From IMG/VR virus record IMGVR_UViG_2531839524_000007: DNA of 23,762 bases; one strand, given 5' to 3'. The notes beneath the pieces were generated by a model. The model did no database searches, was not told the origin of the DNA, and saw nothing but the letters and a program-made list of their open reading frames with translations. Both the position numbers and the translations under genes were made by a program. Numbering within the stretch: position 1 is the first letter of the stretch; every line of letters begins with the position of its first letter. Of the stretch, positions 11,193-23,762 are shown one piece after another. Origin of the DNA: a virus (lineage: Duplodnaviria > Heunggongvirae > Uroviricota > Caudoviricetes).

Positions 11193-11209
11193 TGAAACAG
11201 GTGAGTTGA

Positions 11210-11244
11210 GTTCAAACTGTAGTACAATTCTCTCCAGTTTGAAC
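11210..11244. repeat. Perfect 10-bp inverted repeat GTTCAAACTG-N15-CAGTTTGAAC just upstream of emrE
   Basis: Read directly; lies between the ren stop and the emrE Shine-Dalgarno; the 9-mer AGTTTGAAC recurs at 14817-14825. Confidence 0.6.
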
Positions 11245-11259
11245 AGGAAAGAATATGCT

Positions 11260-11592
11260 ATGAATCCTTATATTTATCTTGGTGGTGCAATACTTGCAGA
11301 GGTCATTGGTACAACCTTAATGAAGTTTTCAGAAGGTTTTACACGGTTATGGCCATCTGTTGGTACAATTATTTGTTATTGTGCATCATTCTGGTTATTA
11401 GCTCAGACGCTGGCTTATATTCCTACAGGGATTGCTTATGCTATCTGGTCAGGAGTCGGTATTGTCCTGATTAGCTTACTATCATGGGGATTTTTCGGCC
11501 AACGGTTGGCCCTGCCAGCCATTATAGGCATGATGTTGATTTGTGCCGGTGTGTTGGTTATTAATTTATTGTCACGAAGCACACCACATTAA
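11260..11592 (+). CDS. emrE: Small multidrug resistance efflux transporter EmrE
   Basis: 110 aa from ATG 11260 after AGGAAAG; MNPYIYLGGAILAEVIGTTLMKFSEGFTRLWPSVGTIICYCASFWLLAQTLAYIPTGIAYAIWSGVGIVLISLLSWGFFGQRL... recognised as EmrE with the conserved membrane Glu14. Confidence 0.93.
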   Translation: MNPYIYLGGAILAEVIGTTLMKFSEGFTRLWPSVGTIICYCASFWLLAQTLAYIPTGIAYAIWSGVGIVLISLLSWGFFGQRLALPAIIGMMLICAGVLVINLLSRSTPH

Positions 11593-11847
11593 AAATAATT
11601 TGTTTTTAAACGACTAAAATATGGAGGCTCGTATATTTATATGGGCCTCGTTTTATGCTTTTTGTTAATGTCTTTAGTTTTTATTCATTCTTTTGTGCTT
11701 TCAAGATTATGGTGTAAGAAAATTGCAATACGATTATTGTTGTATATTCAAGATAATGTGACCTTAATTGTCTTTTTAAATAAAAATTAAACAAAAATCA
11801 TATCTCACCACTAAGGTTTATAAAAGCATACTTTAGCAGGTGTCACC

Positions 11848-13374
11848 ATGAAAAAAGCCATAGCATATATGCGATTTTCATCACCAGGTCAGATGTCTGG
11901 TGATTCATTAAACCGCCAGAGAAGGCTTATTACTGAATGGCTAAAGGTAAATAGTGATTATTACCTTGATACCGTAACGTATGAAGATTTGGGGTTAAGC
12001 GCATTCAATGGAAAGCATGCACAATCAGGAGCTTTTTCGGAATTTTTAGATGCTATAGAACATGGTTATATATTGCCAGGGACTACATTGTTAGTTGAAA
12101 GTCTGGACAGACTTTCAAGAGAAAAAGTCGGTGAAGCGATTGAGCGTCTGAAATTGATTTTGAATCACGGTATTGATGTTATAACTCTTTGCGATAATAC
12201 AGTCTATAATATTGACTCATTGAATGAGCCATATTCATTAATAAAAGCCATACTTATAGCACAAAGGGCAAATGAAGAAAGCGAGATAAAGTCAAGTCGG
12301 GTTAAATTATCATGGAAGAAAAAACGGCAGGATGCACTGGAGTCAGGCACGATTATGACGGCGTCTTGTCCGAGATGGCTCTCATTGGATGACAAAAGAA
12401 CGGCTTTTGTTCCAGACCCCGACAGGGTGAAAACTATTGAGCTAATTTTTAAACTCAGGATGGAAAGGCGCTCATTGAATGCAATAGCCAAGTATTTAAA
12501 TGATCATGCTGTAAAGAATTTCTCAGGAAAAGAAAGTGCATGGGGACCTTCTGTAATTGAAAAATTATTAGCGAATAAAGCTCTGATAGGTATATGCGTA
12601 CCTTCATATCGTGCAAGAGGTAAAGGAATAAGTGAAATCGCTGGCTATTATCCCAGAGTCATATCAGATGATTTGTTTTACGCTGTGCAGGAAATTCGGT
12701 TGGCACCTTTTGGTATTAGCAATAGTAGCAAAAATCCTATGTTGATAAATCTACTTCGAACAGTTATGAAGTGCGAGGCTTGTGGTAATACCATGATTGT
12801 TCATGCGATATCTGGAAGTTTGCATGGCTATTATGTTTGTCCGATGAGAAGACTGCATCGATGTGACAGGCCATCAATAAAGAGAGATTTGGTTGATTAT
12901 AATATCATTAATGAGTTGCTTTTTAATTGTAGTAAAATCCAACCAGTTGAAAACAAGAAAGATGCTAATGAAACTTTAGAGTTGAAAATTATTGAGCTCC
13001 AGATGAAAATTAATAATTTAATTGCTGCATTATCTGTTGCGCCTGAAGTTACCGCTATAGCAGAAAAAATCAGAGTATTAGATAAGGAATTACGAAGGGC
13101 TTCTGTATCATTAAAAACTTTGAAGAGTAAAGCGGTGAGTTCACTTGGTGATTTTCATGCTATTGACTTAACCAGTAAAAATGGGCGAGAGCTATGTCGT
13201 ACACTTGCCTATAAAACATTCGAAAAAATCATAATCAATACAGATAATAAAACCTGTGATATCTATTTTATGAATGGCATTGTTTTTAAACACTATCCTT
13301 TAATGAAAACAATATCTGCCCAGCAGGCGATAAGTACTCTCAAATATATGGTTGATGGTGAGGTTTATTTTTGA
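11848..13374 (+). CDS. ybcK: Large serine recombinase, YbcK-like
   Basis: 508-aa ORF; N-terminal resolvase-type catalytic domain (AIAYMRFSSPGQ, VESLDRLSR), recombinase domain, Cys cluster CEACGN...CPMRRLHRC, C-terminal coiled-coil-like region; low GC; recalled as the DLP12 ybcK family. Confidence 0.85.
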   Translation: MKKAIAYMRFSSPGQMSGDSLNRQRRLITEWLKVNSDYYLDTVTYEDLGLSAFNGKHAQSGAFSEFLDAIEHGYILPGTTLLVESLDRLSREKVGEAIERLKLILNHGIDVITLCDNTVYNIDSLNEPYSLIKAILIAQRANEESEIKSSRVKLSWKKKRQDALESGTIMTASCPRWLSLDDKRTAFVPDPDRVKTIELIFKLRMERRSLNAIAKYLNDHAVKNFSGKESAWGPSVIEKLLANKALIGICVPSYRARGKGISEIAGYYPRVISDDLFYAVQEIRLAPFGISNSSKNPMLINLLRTVMKCEACGNTMIVHAISGSLHGYYVCPMRRLHRCDRPSIKRDLVDYNIINELLFNCSKIQPVENKKDANETLELKIIELQMKINNLIAALSVAPEVTAIAEKIRVLDKELRRASVSLKTLKSKAVSSLGDFHAIDLTSKNGRELCRTLAYKTFEKIIINTDNKTCDIYFMNGIVFKHYPLMKTISAQQAISTLKYMVDGEVYF

Positions 13375-13485
13375 GTAATAATCACTTTTTCAACCGTGCT
13401 ATAGTAAGAAAGTTAGGTAAGTACAATAAAATTATCTATCCTGAACGAAGCGTCCTGAGCTATGGTTTTACTATAGGGACTGCCA

Positions 13486-13809
13486 ATGGATGCTGGCGTT
13501 CTCGTTCTAGCAGTTCAACAATCCCCAATCACAAAACAATTCACTGATAACGAACTTTGCACACTCGCCTGGTTATGGCGAGCAGGGAATGTGATGTTAA
13601 TTACCTACCAGAACGTTACTCCTCTTCTTCAGGTTGCGGAGCATCGTGAAGCTGGTCGCTTCACTTCTATCGAGCAAGAATATCCCCAGATACTCAACAG
13701 AGCGCGAGCAATCCTCGTCCGAGAAACGGCACATGTAAAACTTCAGCCGTGGCAGGATGATAAGTGGAGTCGAGTATTGCCGCATTTACCTCAGAATCTG
13801 TTTCAATAA
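13486..13809 (+). CDS. Hypothetical 107-aa protein upstream of the HNH-motif gene
   Basis: ORF with ATG and weak AGGGA Shine-Dalgarno; no recognisable family; could be a gene remnant. Confidence 0.35.
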   Translation: MDAGVLVLAVQQSPITKQFTDNELCTLAWLWRAGNVMLITYQNVTPLLQVAEHREAGRFTSIEQEYPQILNRARAILVRETAHVKLQPWQDDKWSRVLPHLPQNLFQ

Positions 13810-13827
13810 AGGCGCTAGTTAGTAAGG

Positions 13828-13853
13828 CTTCCGTCATTCTGCGATGACGGAAG
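13828..13853 (+). terminator. Perfect 10-bp-stem hairpin (cttccgtcat-tctgcg-atgacggaag) after the 107-aa ORF
   Basis: Inverted repeat read directly; no strong downstream T-tract, so it may be an attenuator, processing site or repeat element rather than a terminator. Confidence 0.35.
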
Positions 13854-13983
13854 TGCGGGCTGCGTACGGGAGAGCAATTGCATGAATAATATAAATATTC
13901 CGCTCACTCCATATAGCGATTTCTGATACAAACTTATCTATTGTGGTAAAATTATAGAAACAAACTTATAGCGTACTAACCAT

Positions 13984-14766
13984 ATGGACAATATTAATAA
14001 ACACGGGCTCTCAAGAAGAATTCCTGAGACAATAAAACGTCAGATAAGGCAAAGGTGCGGCTTTGGCTGTGTAATTTGTGGATTTGGATTTTATGATTAT
14101 GAGCATTTTAAACCTGACTTCGTTGATGCCAAAGTACATGATCCGAATGGAATGACACTTCTTTGCTCCCAATGCAATCAAAAAAGAGCTCGTGGTAGAC
14201 TTTCAGCACAGACAGTGGAAATAGCTGACAGAAATCCCAAGTGCTTACAGGCTGGTTTTGCAAATGAAATGTTTGATTTTCATAATGAGCCTATAACAGT
14301 AAAATTTGCAGGAGTGACGTTTCATAACTGTCAAAATTTGATTGTAGTCAACGAACAACCCATTCTTTCTGTGAAACCTTCACCCATACCACATGGACCG
14401 ATGCTTTTATCAGGAATTTTCTGTAATTCTATTGGTAAGGAGACTTTACTGATAGATGAAAATGAATGGAAAGCTAAATCAGACAATTGGGATGTGGAGT
14501 GTACCGGCCCGCGTATAACAATACGACGTGGGCCAGGAGAGTTTGCCCTCGTTCTAAAAATGGAACCTCCAACAGGATTGATTGTTGAGCGTCTTGATAT
14601 GTTGTATGAAGGGGTCAGGATGAAAGGAGATAAAGATCTGCTGGAAGTTTCGATTAATGGAGGTCCCTTGCACAGATGGCAATCATGCTCAATGTCAAAT
14701 TGCCATACAGGGCTTGCGATTCAGGGCGGTATTAGAGCTGCTAATGATCCTTTGTATTGCGCCTAA
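13984..14766 (+). CDS. HNH-motif nuclease-domain protein with uncharacterised about 180-aa C-terminal domain
   Basis: 260-aa ORF; N-terminal CGFGCVICGFGFYDYEHF...HDPNGMTLLCSQCNQKR matches the HNH pattern (Cys pair, D/E-H, Asn, second Cys pair); remainder unrecognised; low GC. Confidence 0.75.
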   Translation: MDNINKHGLSRRIPETIKRQIRQRCGFGCVICGFGFYDYEHFKPDFVDAKVHDPNGMTLLCSQCNQKRARGRLSAQTVEIADRNPKCLQAGFANEMFDFHNEPITVKFAGVTFHNCQNLIVVNEQPILSVKPSPIPHGPMLLSGIFCNSIGKETLLIDENEWKAKSDNWDVECTGPRITIRRGPGEFALVLKMEPPTGLIVERLDMLYEGVRMKGDKDLLEVSINGGPLHRWQSCSMSNCHTGLAIQGGIRAANDPLYCA

Positions 14767-14808
14767 ATCCACTAAATTGATTTTCAACAATCAACTTGCC
14801 ATAATTAA

Positions 14809-14836
14809 GTCACCGGAGTTTGAACTCCTCCGGTGA
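14809..14836 (+). terminator. Perfect 10-bp-stem hairpin (gtcaccggag-tttgaact-ctccggtgac) downstream of the HNH gene
   Basis: Inverted repeat read directly; loop contains the AGTTTGAAC 9-mer also found upstream of emrE. Confidence 0.5.
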
Positions 14837-14958
14837 CTTCTGCGCTAAACGGGGACGTTTATGCGCACATACAATCCAACCTCTCTTCTCCATTCACAGA
14901 TGCAGAAATGCACCTGCGATATTTTGCATCCAGCGTTTGATCTCTGCGGAGGTGAAGC

Positions 14959-15414
14959 GTGAACCTCCCACAAGATGGTATCAAATTGCATCGCGGTAAC
15001 TTCACCGCTATCGGTCGGCAGATCCAGCCTTATCTGGAGGACGGCAAATGCTTTCGCATGGTGCTTAAACCGTGGCGCGAGAGACGCAGTCTTTCCCAGA
15101 ATGCACTCAGCCACATGTGGTACAGCGAAATCAGTGAATACCTCATCAGCAAGGGTAAAACGTTCGCCACTCCAGCTTGGGTAAAAGATGCTCTCAAACA
15201 CACATATCTCGGTTATGAAACCAAAGACCTGGTTGATGTCGTAACCGGTGATATCACCACTATCCAGTCGTTACGCCATACCTCCGATCTTGATACCGGA
15301 GAGATGTATGTCTTCCTGTGTAAGGTTGAAGCCTGGGCGATGAATATTGGCTGCCACCTGACTATTCCGCAGAGCTGCGAGTTCCAGCAGCTCCGCGACA
15401 AACAGGAGGCGTAA
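14959..15414 (+). CDS. ybcN: NinB-family protein, YbcN-like
   Basis: 151-aa ORF with GTG start; [13 protein letters not shown] motif of the NinB family; recalled as DLP12 ybcN. Confidence 0.85.
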
Positions 15415-21447: not shown

Positions 21448-22029
21448 ATGGAAGTCAACAAAAAGCAGCTGGCTGACATTTTCGGTGCGAGTATCCGTAC
21501 CATTCAGAACTGGCAGGAACAGGGAATGCCCGTTCTGCGAGGCGGTGGCAAGGGTAATGAGGTGCTTTATGACTCTGCCGCCGTCATAAAATGGTATGCC
21601 AAAAGGGATGCTGAAATTGAGAACGAAAAGCTGCGCCGGGAGGTTGAAGAACTGCGGCAGGCCAGCGAGGCAGATCTCCAGCCAGGGACTATTGAGTACG
21701 AACGCCATCGACTTACGCGTGCGCAGGCCGACGCACAGGAACTGAAGAATGCCAGAGACTCCGCTGAAGTGGTGGAAACCGCATTCTGTACTTTCGTGCT
21801 GTCGCGGATCGCAGGTGAAATTGCCAGTATTCTCGACGGGATCCCCCTGTCGGTGCAGCGGCGTTTTCCGGAACTGGAAAACCGACATGTTGATTTCCTG
21901 AAACGGGATATCATCAAAGCCATGAACAAAGCAGCCGCGCTGGATGAACTGATATCGGTGCCGGTATTGAGAACACCCCTGACGGCATGCAGAGTCAGGT
22001 GCTGCTGGCAGCAGACAGGATTGCGATGA
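21448..22029 (+). CDS. nu1: Terminase small subunit Nu1; the C-terminal tail diverges because of a deletion junction
   Basis: [51 protein letters not shown]... matches lambda Nu1 through ...[13 protein letters not shown]; after about 21950 the sequence runs on as [24 protein letters not shown]. Confidence 0.85.
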
Positions 22030-22730
22030 TTAATCCTGCGAATGGCAACACAAAGCCGATGTTTGTTGGTCAGGGCGATCAGATATTCATGAATGAAGTG
22101 TTCCTGAAACGCCTGACGGCCCCCACCATTACCAGCGGCGGTAATCCTCCGGCATTTTCCCTGACATCAGACGGGAGACTGACGGCGAAAAATGCGGATA
22201 TCAGTGGCAGTGTGAATGCGAACTCAGGAACGCTCAACAATGTCACGATTAACCAGAACTGTACGATTAAGGGCATGCTGGAGGCGACCCAGGTCAGAGG
22301 TGACTTCGTTAAAGCTGTATCCAAATCATTCCCGAAACAGGCTGGTACGTGGGGTAACACGGAAACACCAAACGGGACGGTTACAGTCACCATCAGCGAT
22401 GATCATAACTTTGACCGTCAAATCATTATTCCGCCCATTATCTTTAACGGAATAGCGTATAGCGATCCGGGAAGTGGTAATAACCCGGGAGGTACAAGAT
22501 ACACGGGTTATGGTTTTGAAGTTCGCAAAAACGGTGTATTAATCGCATCCAGAGAAACTAAAGGGGCCATTCCCGGTAGCTACAGTGCGGTTATTGATAT
22601 GCCGAGTGGCAGGGGAAGCGTCACTCTGGAGTTTAAGGTTTTCCAGAAAGGCAATCAGGGGGCAGGCAATATCACCGACTGTACGGTGATTGTGACCAAA
22701 AAAGCCGCTTCCGGCATCAGTATTCGTTGA
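21987..22730 (+). pseudogene. 3' fragment of a tail host-specificity (J-like) gene fused behind truncated Nu1
   Basis: 247-aa ORF rich in Gly/Thr/Asn/Ser repeats typical of fiber/receptor-binding domains, ending about 70 nt before lom with a strong terminator between; terminase large subunit, portal, capsid and tail genes expected between Nu1 and J are absent; J identity is positional. Confidence 0.55.
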
Positions 22731-22742
22731 AATATTTATAAC

Positions 22743-22766
22743 CCCAATAAAGGGCGTCAGGAATGA
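22743..22766 (+). terminator. Intrinsic terminator after the J-like fragment
   Basis: Hairpin ggcgtca-ggaa-tgacgcc followed by TTTTTT. Confidence 0.65.
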
Positions 22767-22800
22767 CGCCTTTTTTATTGCAGAAAAGCGAGAGGTAATT

Positions 22801-23178
22801 ATGCGTAAACTTTATGCCGCCATTTTGTCCGCAGCCATTTGTCTGGCCGTATCCGGTGCGCCTGCATGGGCGTCTGAACATCAGTCCACGCTGAGCGCGG
22901 GGTATCTTCATGCCCGGACGAACGTTCCCGGCAGTGATGATCTGAACGGGATTAACGTGAAATACCGTTATGAGTTTACGGACACACTGGGGATGGTGAC
23001 GTCGTTCAGCTATGCAGGAGACAAGAATCGCCAGATTACCCGTTACAGCGATATTGGTGCACACACGCACTCCGTTGCGATTGGTTCACATGGACACACC
23101 ATCACCGTTAACGCTGCTGGTAACGCGGAAAACACCGTCAAAAACATCGCATTTAACTATATTGTGAGGCTTGCATAA
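22801..23178 (+). CDS. Chimeric ORF: Lom-family outer-membrane protein N-terminus (about 85 aa) fused in frame to the last about 40 aa of the side tail fiber Stf
   Basis: N-terminal signal peptide and [12 protein letters not shown] motif of Lom/Ail/PagC; C-terminal [40 protein letters not shown] recalled as the lambda Stf C-terminus; ORF ends where tfa begins. Confidence 0.75.
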
Positions 23179-23762
23179 TGGCATTCAGAATGAGTGAACA
23201 ACCACGGACCATAAAAATTTATAATCTGCTGGCCGGAACTAATGAATTTATTGGTGAAGGTGACGCATATATTCCGCCTCATACAGGTCTGCCAGCAAAC
23301 AGTACCGATATTGCACCGCCAGATATTCCGGCTGGCTTTGTGGCTGTTTTCAACAGTGATGAGGCATCGTGGCATCTCGTTGAAGATCATCGGGGAAAAA
23401 CCGTCTATGACGTGGCTTCCGGCGACGCGTTATTTATTTCTGAACTTGGCTCGTTACCGGAAAATGTCACCTGGTTATCGCCGGAAGGGGAATATCAGAA
23501 GTGGAACGGCACAGCCTGGGTGAAGGATACGGAAGCAGAAAAACTGTTCCGGATCCGGGAGGCGGAAGAAATAAAAAACAGCCTGATGCAGGTAGCCAGT
23601 GAGCATATAGCGCCACTTCAGGATGCTGTAGATCTGGAGATCGCAACGGAGGAAGAAACCTCATTGCTGGAAGCCTGGAAAAAATATCGGGTGTTGCTTA
23701 ACCGTGTTAATACAACAACTGCACCGGATATTGAATGGCCAACAGTACCCATTATCGAATAG
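23178..23762 (+). CDS. tfa: Tail fiber assembly protein Tfa
   Basis: 194-aa [94 protein letters not shown]... recognised as lambda Tfa; complete, stop is the last triplet of the window. Confidence 0.93.

Follow-up and report, generated by a model that had tools for sequence, protein, structure and literature searches.

The locus and its features

We describe here a one-gene cassette, carrying an open reading frame (ORF) of 260 amino acids (aa) named ORF260, in a 23,762-nucleotide stretch of DNA (hereafter the window) deposited as IMG/VR virus record IMGVR_UViG_2531839524_000007 and assigned to Caudoviricetes. Over its full length, the window is 99.975% identical to positions 766301-790062 of the Escherichia coli F9792 chromosome (L001 627-24388), where it holds a defective lambda-like prophage located between ybhC and ybhB/bioA. 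The genes of this prophage are arranged in the order int, xis, exo/bet/gam, a cI-like repressor gene, O, P, ren, emrE and ybcK (encoding a large serine recombinase), followed by ORF107, ORF260, ybcN, ninE, ybcO, rusA, ylcG, quuD, a porin gene and the lysis genes, 3′ of which terminase and tail genes are left as remnants only. The original prediction, which was made from the sequence of the window, had placed a 107-aa and a 260-aa ORF between ybcK and ybcN, and both were confirmed (13486-13809 and 13984-14766). The features of the region are as follows.

13486-13809, + strand: ORF107, a 5′-truncated Rha/antirepressor remnant in which only the P22AR C-terminal domain is left; it flanks the nuclease unit and lies outside it
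13828-13853, + strand: hairpin 1 (arms 13828-13837 and 13844-13853), which belongs to the Rha 3′ module
13861-14776, + strand: variable single-gene cassette of 916 bp (GC content 0.397), the only segment not common to sibling phages
13923-13969, + strand: AT-rich leader elements, comprising a promoter-like site and a 13-nt direct repeat (consensus matches only)
13984-14766, + strand: ORF260, 260 aa, with an HNH nuclease domain and an acidic all-beta domain
13984-14250, + strand: ORF260 residues 1-89, basic zinc-ribbon HNH (beta-beta-alpha-metal) domain, with C29, C32, C61 and C64 as candidate zinc ligands and E40-H41 and N65 as candidate catalytic/metal-binding residues
14251-14766, + strand: ORF260 residues 90-260 and the stop codon, acidic all-beta domain of unrecognized fold, with a poorly modelled tail containing AANDPxY
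14777-14839, + strand: start of the ybcN/ninB backbone, with putative -35/-10 elements and hairpin 2, shared with phage 82
14959-15414, + strand: ybcN (NinB-like), the first nin-region backbone gene downstream of the cassette

A single-gene cassette in a variable slot

The limits of the variable unit are set by homology on both sides. Similarity to phage PhiR26_1 stops at 13860 and backbone homology resumes at 14777, and the variable unit is therefore 13861-14776, which consists of a 123-bp leader (GC 0.333), ORF260 and 10 bp 3′ of the stop codon. A junction probe revealed that homology begins exactly at 14777 in approximately 2900 E. coli genomes, K-12 included, and on this right-hand side it also extends to phage 82, PhiR26_1 and phage Turner. 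The segment 13375-14960 is found at 100% identity in several strains, and most of it is present in only 80 of 5426 complete E. coli genomes. No empty site, with both flanks joined directly, was detected in these 5426 genomes, the slot being always filled.

A comparison of the same slot in related prophages, which had been suggested along with the original prediction, demonstrated that its content is variable. In PhiR26_1, a 169-aa unknown protein is encoded at the very junctions used by the ORF260 cassette, and the defence gene PD-Lambda-1 (DUF4041 plus T5orf172; L002 2190-3692, opposite strand; PADLOC E-value 1.9e-198) is found further upstream. Phage 4A7 has a BD-FAE alpha/beta hydrolase gene on the opposite strand (L012 3350-4393), E. 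coli SE11 an 83-aa unknown ORF and phage Turner several small ORFs. The segment 13861-14776 is thus a self-contained, horizontally mobile one-gene cassette in a variable slot that has the replication/ybcK block on one side and the nin genes on the other.

The insert had been characterized as AT-rich, which holds true when it is compared with the nin backbone downstream (GC 0.397 versus 0.509); however, ybcK upstream has an even lower value (0.364), and low GC is therefore no mark of this insert alone. With regard to the hallmarks of so-called morons, the cassette shows defined boundaries and the above difference in GC content from the downstream backbone, hairpins are present upstream of several homologues, and its promoter is recognized by consensus only. 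The candidate promoter-like site at 13923-13952 (CTGATA-18-TAAAAT, with TG) has its -10 element flanked by the two copies of the direct repeat GAwACAAACTTAT (13925-13937 and 13957-13969). A TTCTGATA-like motif recurs approximately 50-60 bp 5′ of the start codon in homologues with 75-79% identity (L119, L122 and L126).

Domain structure of ORF260

An HNH-type pattern had been noticed in the first 70 residues of the protein, and it is indeed present (CGFGCVIC...YDYEH...CSQCN), with its key residues conserved across an alignment of 40 homologues: C25, C29, C32, E40, H41, H52, C61 and N65 are invariant, and C64 is retained in at least 90% of the sequences. By analogy with Cas9 and T4 endonuclease VII, we assume that H41 is the general base, that E40 and N65 are metal ligands and that the four cysteines form a zinc site. 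A confident ColabFold model built from the 40 homologues (mean pLDDT 88.4, pTM 0.78) has the beta-beta-alpha-metal fold of the HNH/His-Me finger superfamily, whose acid-His pair, distal Asn and CCCC zinc site are all found among the conserved residues. Among the profiles, Pfam HNH (PF01844) scores 14.5 bits on ORF260, below its cutoff of 21.4, while one longer relative (P0198) reaches 25.0, and the PHROG HNH families match only a core of approximately 60 residues with E-values of 5e-4 or weaker.

The C-terminal part of the protein had been considered unfamiliar, and the searches bear this out. Residues 90-250 are modelled as approximately 16 short beta-strands, for which the fold search returned no match among solved or viral structures, and PDB sequence searches, with either the single sequence or a profile, produced chance-level matches only. 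Several of the weak viral fold matches of the protein are annotated as homing endonucleases, and NinG proteins appear at ranks 20 and 42 in BFVD. The two domains differ markedly in charge, with a median net charge of +4.5 and a pI of 8.95 for the HNH domain versus -8 and 4.85 for the beta-domain, as well as in conservation, with identity to the window protein amounting to 72% in the former and 35-55% in the latter (lowest at residues 215-250). In the low-confidence tail (residues 250-260, 14731-14763), AANDPxY is conserved in forms of approximately 260 aa and absent from those of 247 aa, and it could be a short linear interaction motif.

This combination of domains might be explained by a Type IV-like modification-dependent restriction enzyme, in which the C-terminal domain would recognize a modified base, or phage DNA that is hypermodified, cleavage being left to the HNH domain; the unmodified DNA of the host would then be safe without an immunity partner. 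Such an enzyme agrees with the missing partner gene (see below), but the acidic, unrecognized second domain is ill-suited to the task and has no match to SRA, PUA/EVE or McrA N-terminal domains in Pfam or the fold search, and we therefore regard this explanation as improbable.

A large and widespread protein family

A first search recovered 305 relatives with lengths of 247-265 aa from Enterobacteriaceae, Burkholderia, Comamonas, Pseudomonas and Vibrio; they are either unnamed or labelled 'HNH endonuclease', and no precomputed Pfam domain is recorded for any of them. With a profile built from only the C-terminal domain, 1492 clusters at 50% identity were collected. In most full-length matches this domain starts near residue 88, a position that immediately follows the HNH domain in the alignment of the family and in those extended relatives that were checked with Pfam. 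The architecture therefore appears to be fixed; a minority of relatives are extended at the C-terminus, for instance by TPR repeats or by a CxxCxxCC domain. In GTDB, with one genome per species, relatives occur in 221 of 185,579 species, whose members include cyanobacteria, planctomycetes, Chloroflexota, acidobacteria, Deinococcus and one archaeon (Methanothrix), and a further 103 contigs with a relative are found in IMG/VR. Pairwise comparisons gave 0.15-0.34 non-synonymous differences per site, far below the saturated synonymous sites (approximately 0.8), which indicates strong purifying selection.

It had also been considered that ORF107 and ORF260 might be fragments of one decayed gene. 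This was ruled out, ORF260 being of full length when compared with more than 300 homologues. ORF260 has the protein accession WP_001348590.1, and a literature search by protein accession returned no match. Whatever its function, a large family under selection for which no model of Pfam, NCBIfam or PADLOC reaches its curated threshold constitutes a real annotation gap.

Genomic neighbourhoods of the homologues

No conserved partner gene was detected in 76 species loci, where the largest neighbour cluster is common to only four loci, or in viral loci, 77 of 80 of which allowed the gene to be located. The cluster that recurs upstream in the viral loci is, as we judge from reading the sequences, presumably a heterogeneous Ea22-like backbone family. 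When the neighbours are sorted by family, each Pfam family is represented at most twice across the 143 immediate and the 136 next-but-one proteins, and each PADLOC family at most once within the immediate set. The few defence-like neighbours comprise Schlafen/AlbA_2, HEPN and Mrr proteins, components of type I, IIG and IV restriction systems and a ZorD-like helicase. Pairing with a modification enzyme, as in restriction-modification systems, was ruled out, methyltransferases being adjacent only occasionally.

In a Vibrio cholerae contig (L101 1-2161), the gene makes up a superintegron cassette by itself, with cassettes for an acetyltransferase and a glyoxalase on its two sides, and is bounded by repeats that we take, by eye, to be VCR/attC sites. 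In a Pseudomonas prophage it lies on the strand opposite to its neighbours. In enterobacterial prophages (Enterobacter, Klebsiella and other E. coli), the gene recurs at a position between the replication genes and the nin/Q genes; in prophage homologues, an upstream gap of approximately 70-310 bp is present, in which an AT-rich leader is often preceded by a terminator-like hairpin. Approximately 700 bp without a called gene are present behind the HNH gene in an E. coli prophage (L093 7793-8476) and a Klebsiella prophage (L097 7787-8509).

From the enterobacterial arrangement, the protein could be viewed as a nin-region nuclease of phage DNA metabolism which, like NinG/Rap and RusA, would be expressed from the early-right operon and process recombination, fork or packaging intermediates during lytic growth. 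In the Enterobacter, Klebsiella and two E. coli contexts, the gene is co-oriented with that operon behind the replication genes, and a weak resemblance to NinG exists (phrog_5034, E-value 0.44, in addition to the BFVD ranks given above). However, no Pfam NinG (PF05766) match was obtained, the gene is sporadic (the 80 E. coli genomes mentioned above versus approximately 2900 with the flanking backbone), terminator-like hairpins upstream insulate it from read-through, and it also occurs outside phages, both in the integron and in cyanobacterial, planctomycete and archaeal chromosomes. Of the explanations weighed here, this one seems to us the least probable.

A selfish free-standing homing endonuclease, which would cut cassette-free phage genomes and be copied into them by repair, has somewhat more in its favour. 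The neat one-gene insertion at the fixed junction 14777 upstream of ybcN, which recurs at the same position in the 79%-identical homologues L119 and L122, would be explained by such an element, HNH is a classic homing-nuclease fold with several weak viral fold matches annotated accordingly, the family is frequent in phage contigs, and isolated insertions among housekeeping genes suit a selfish gene. On the other hand, Pfam contains no NUMOD, IENR1, AP2 or HTH module and no homing-endonuclease family (e.g., HNH_3) that matches at E <= 1, and assignment to such a family by a profile search, which had been envisaged as a possible outcome, did not occur. An acidic C-terminal domain is unfavourable for DNA site recognition, and travel as an integron cassette is a different mechanism. 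In addition, neighbours differ completely between loci, whereas homing genes stay beside their target gene, and the empty site on which homing would act was not seen in the E. coli genomes. Taken together, we consider homing unlikely, although less so than either a Type IV-like enzyme or a nin-region nuclease.

Comparison with known systems

With respect to their way of working, Cap5 and the McrA-type enzymes, which combine a nuclease with a second, non-catalytic domain, would be most similar to ORF260. Cap5 of CBASS systems has an N-terminal HNH and a C-terminal SAVED domain, whereas the all-beta C-terminus of ORF260 is not SAVED; identity between the two proteins is approximately 15%, the alignment covers approximately 96 residues (roughly the length of the N-terminal HNH region), and the neighbours include neither a cyclase nor any other CBASS gene. 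The Type IV HNH enzymes (EcoKMcrA, ScoMcrA, TagI and VcaM4I) have an N-terminal reader of known fold and a C-terminal HNH domain, whereas ORF260 shows the opposite order, its second domain being acidic and unrecognized. Septu PtuB and the retron-associated HNH proteins (TIGR02646) need a PtuA ATPase or a retron, neither of which accompanies the ORF260 family. The PADLOC match of ORF260, to PtuB, is not significant (E-value 0.031, 57 residues), and NCBIfam yields nothing; the original prediction was thus right in placing ORF260, as cargo of a variable prophage slot, outside the described defence families.

In lifestyle, the family comes closest to the published systems Sirona and Nemetona, one-gene cassettes of the V. 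cholerae superintegron with demonstrated anti-phage activity, which are distantly related to His-Me/HNH nucleases and NinG (bioRxiv 10.1101/2024.07.02.601686); Sirona has been reported in 34 genera of Pseudomonadota (bioRxiv 10.1101/2024.07.02.601686). The ORF260 family also includes a V. cholerae integron cassette, and this likeness is drawn from the descriptions of the two systems. Among the best 120 relatives of the Vibrio member, no abundant cluster of pandemic-lineage V. cholerae was found.

Two comparisons concern the same genomic region. NinG/Rap and RusA are encoded there as well, and NinG is also a His-Me finger nuclease, but these proteins belong to the backbone, whereas ORF260 is sporadic, has an extra C-terminal domain and occurs outside phages. 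PD-Lambda-1 (DUF4041 plus GIY-YIG/T5orf172) is a single-gene, nuclease-type defence that occupies the same cargo region between ren and ybcN in PhiR26_1; it is unrelated to ORF260 in sequence, fold and strand.

Possible role in defence against superinfecting phages

Based on the above observations, ORF260 is a reasonable and cleanly delimited candidate for a one-gene anti-phage defence from an unannotated family. The explanation that we tentatively favour, with slightly less than even confidence, is that it is a stand-alone nuclease of the prophage moron type which acts against superinfecting phages. In this view, transcription in the lysogen would start within the gene's own leader, and DNA would be bound and cut by the N-terminal zinc-ribbon HNH domain, which is basic. 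The acidic all-beta C-terminal domain would most likely serve for regulation or sensing, and not for DNA recognition, keeping the nuclease silent, or limiting its substrate, until a cue from an infecting phage is received. The lysogen, and hence the prophage, might then be protected either by direct cutting of phage DNA or by abortive self-destruction.

Several lines of evidence are consistent with this proposal. The absence of a partner across loci, together with the one-gene integron cassette, suggests that the gene functions alone. The acidity and variability of the C-terminal domain, as well as the TPR and CxxCxxCC extensions of some relatives, point to a regulatory role of this part. The gaps in which a hairpin precedes a leader, the promoter-like site and the opposite strand in Pseudomonas resemble the anatomy of a moron, and the presence of other cargo in sibling phages, PD-Lambda-1 included, the recurrent position and the patchy spread also argue for a defence function.

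Other considerations weigh against it. An anti-phage or toxin role is suggested by context, and none of the PADLOC defence models is significantly matched by ORF260. Most genes that flank the family members located outside prophages and integrons have housekeeping functions, and the association with defence islands is weak. The promoter is a consensus match only, such sites being no more numerous in the region than shuffled sequences predict, and charge and variability are the whole basis on which a sensor role of the C-terminal domain is proposed. Furthermore, the copies in enterobacterial prophages are oriented with the early-right operon, and the gene could simply be a lytic-cycle gene. The probability left over by moron-type defence and by the three alternatives discussed above falls to other functions.

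If a defence function is true, the cassette would represent a compact one-gene immunity module of approximately 780 bp, new in its sensor fold, very broad in its host range and easy to clone and to dissect, and a further type of cargo would be added to the region between the replication and nin genes of lambdoid prophages. A bolder and more doubtful extension of the idea is that the protein with HNH and acidic beta-domains is the founder of a new and very widespread class of single-protein immune nucleases (approximately 1500 clusters at 50% identity, with members in many phyla of bacteria and in at least one archaeon), in which a C-terminal domain of new fold would directly sense a phage component and release the nuclease, and which would have spread as prophage morons and integron cassettes.

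ORF107 and the hairpins

The original prediction had regarded ORF107 as unplaceable in any lambdoid gene family and had joined it with ORF260 into one candidate system bracketed by two hairpins. Neither view was borne out. ORF107 matches Pfam P22_AR_C (PF10548) with 57.6 bits (cutoff 22.4, E-value 1.3e-15), is covered end to end by phrog_7640 (1-107/107) and aligns with the Rha protein of PhiR26_1 (202 aa) only over Rha residues 100-202, at 83% identity, the N-terminal DNA-binding half of Rha being absent from it. At the DNA level, 13499-13860 is 86% identical to PhiR26_1 (L002 4803-5164), a segment that comprises the 3′ part of Rha and approximately 50 bp downstream with hairpin 1. The 107-aa remnant is also located 3′ of ybcK in phage Turner and E. 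coli SE11, with different cargo behind it each time, and it was not found beside ORF260 homologues of other lineages in the 76 species loci and the viral loci, its pairing with ORF260 occurring only in this prophage lineage. The earlier observation therefore consists of two unrelated things rather than one system. Considering its sequence conservation (phrog_7640, Turner and SE11), the ORF107 family may perhaps be a functional stand-alone P22AR-C protein and not debris.

Both hairpins are genuine inverted repeats. Hairpin 1 has the 10 perfect pairs originally described (12 with flanking G-U pairs), lies 19 bp 3′ of the ORF107 stop codon and has a folding energy of -20.7 kcal/mol (z -3.0 versus shuffles), with approximately 0.014 such repeats expected by chance in 1.8 kb according to our estimate. 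Since it is retained together with the 3′ end of Rha in PhiR26_1, it is the native 3′ hairpin of that gene. Hairpin 2 (14807-14839, arms 14807-14818 and 14828-14839) has 12 perfect pairs, a longer stem than the 10 bp previously given, with a folding energy of -20.4 kcal/mol (z -5.1 versus shuffles) and approximately 0.001 such repeats expected by chance, estimated in the same way for 1.8 kb. It belongs to the ybcN backbone: from 14777 on, the sequence shares 91.5% identity with X92588 (50-273), a record of the phage 82 nin region that is annotated with putative -35 and -10 elements, an inverted repeat designated as a 'possible regulator-binding site' (hairpin 2), orf33 and orf151/ybcN. No T-run follows hairpin 1 or hairpin 2, and neither is among the terminator-like sites found by a terminator scan.

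Rather than bracketing the insert, the hairpins thus belong to the modules on either side of it, and ORF107 and both hairpins are bystanders. The idea that they are terminal repeats of a mobile insert was ruled out, as their sequences are unrelated and each is conserved with its own flanking module. Counting ORF107 and the hairpins as parts of a system would have misled cloning; the minimal construct is 13861-14776, or up to approximately 14840 if the downstream hairpin is included.

Hairpin 2 is retained downstream of the HNH gene at the diverged homologous loci L119 and L122, where one C-to-T change in its 5′ arm would still allow a G-U pair in RNA and would be unpaired in DNA. Such a substitution may point to a function in RNA more than to a palindrome bound by a protein. 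An Rfam scan of 13300-15100 for non-coding RNA returned nothing at E <= 1.

Other features of the region and of related loci

In the Enterobacter prophage (L003 7806-9185), a gene for a 459-aa RES-domain protein, with a weak, sub-threshold HEPN/RES N-terminal match, is found downstream of the ORF260 homologue and separated from it by two small ORFs; the 459-aa protein may be another toxin or defence cargo. In Paraburkholderia (L007 1-5490), a 1987-aa protein with UvrA-like and ABC/AAA domains is encoded divergently to the HNH homologue, beside prophage lysis genes.

Within the window itself, the segment from approximately 21450 to 23762 (L001 22074-24388) reflects the defective state of the prophage: directly behind the terminase small-subunit gene there are pieces of tail-tip, Lom-family and tail genes, and a tail-fibre assembly gene comes next. 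The emrE-ybcK block (11200-13374) has the lowest GC content of the region (0.36) and moves as a unit, as seen in several lambdoid phages (4A7 and Turner) and in E. coli SE11.

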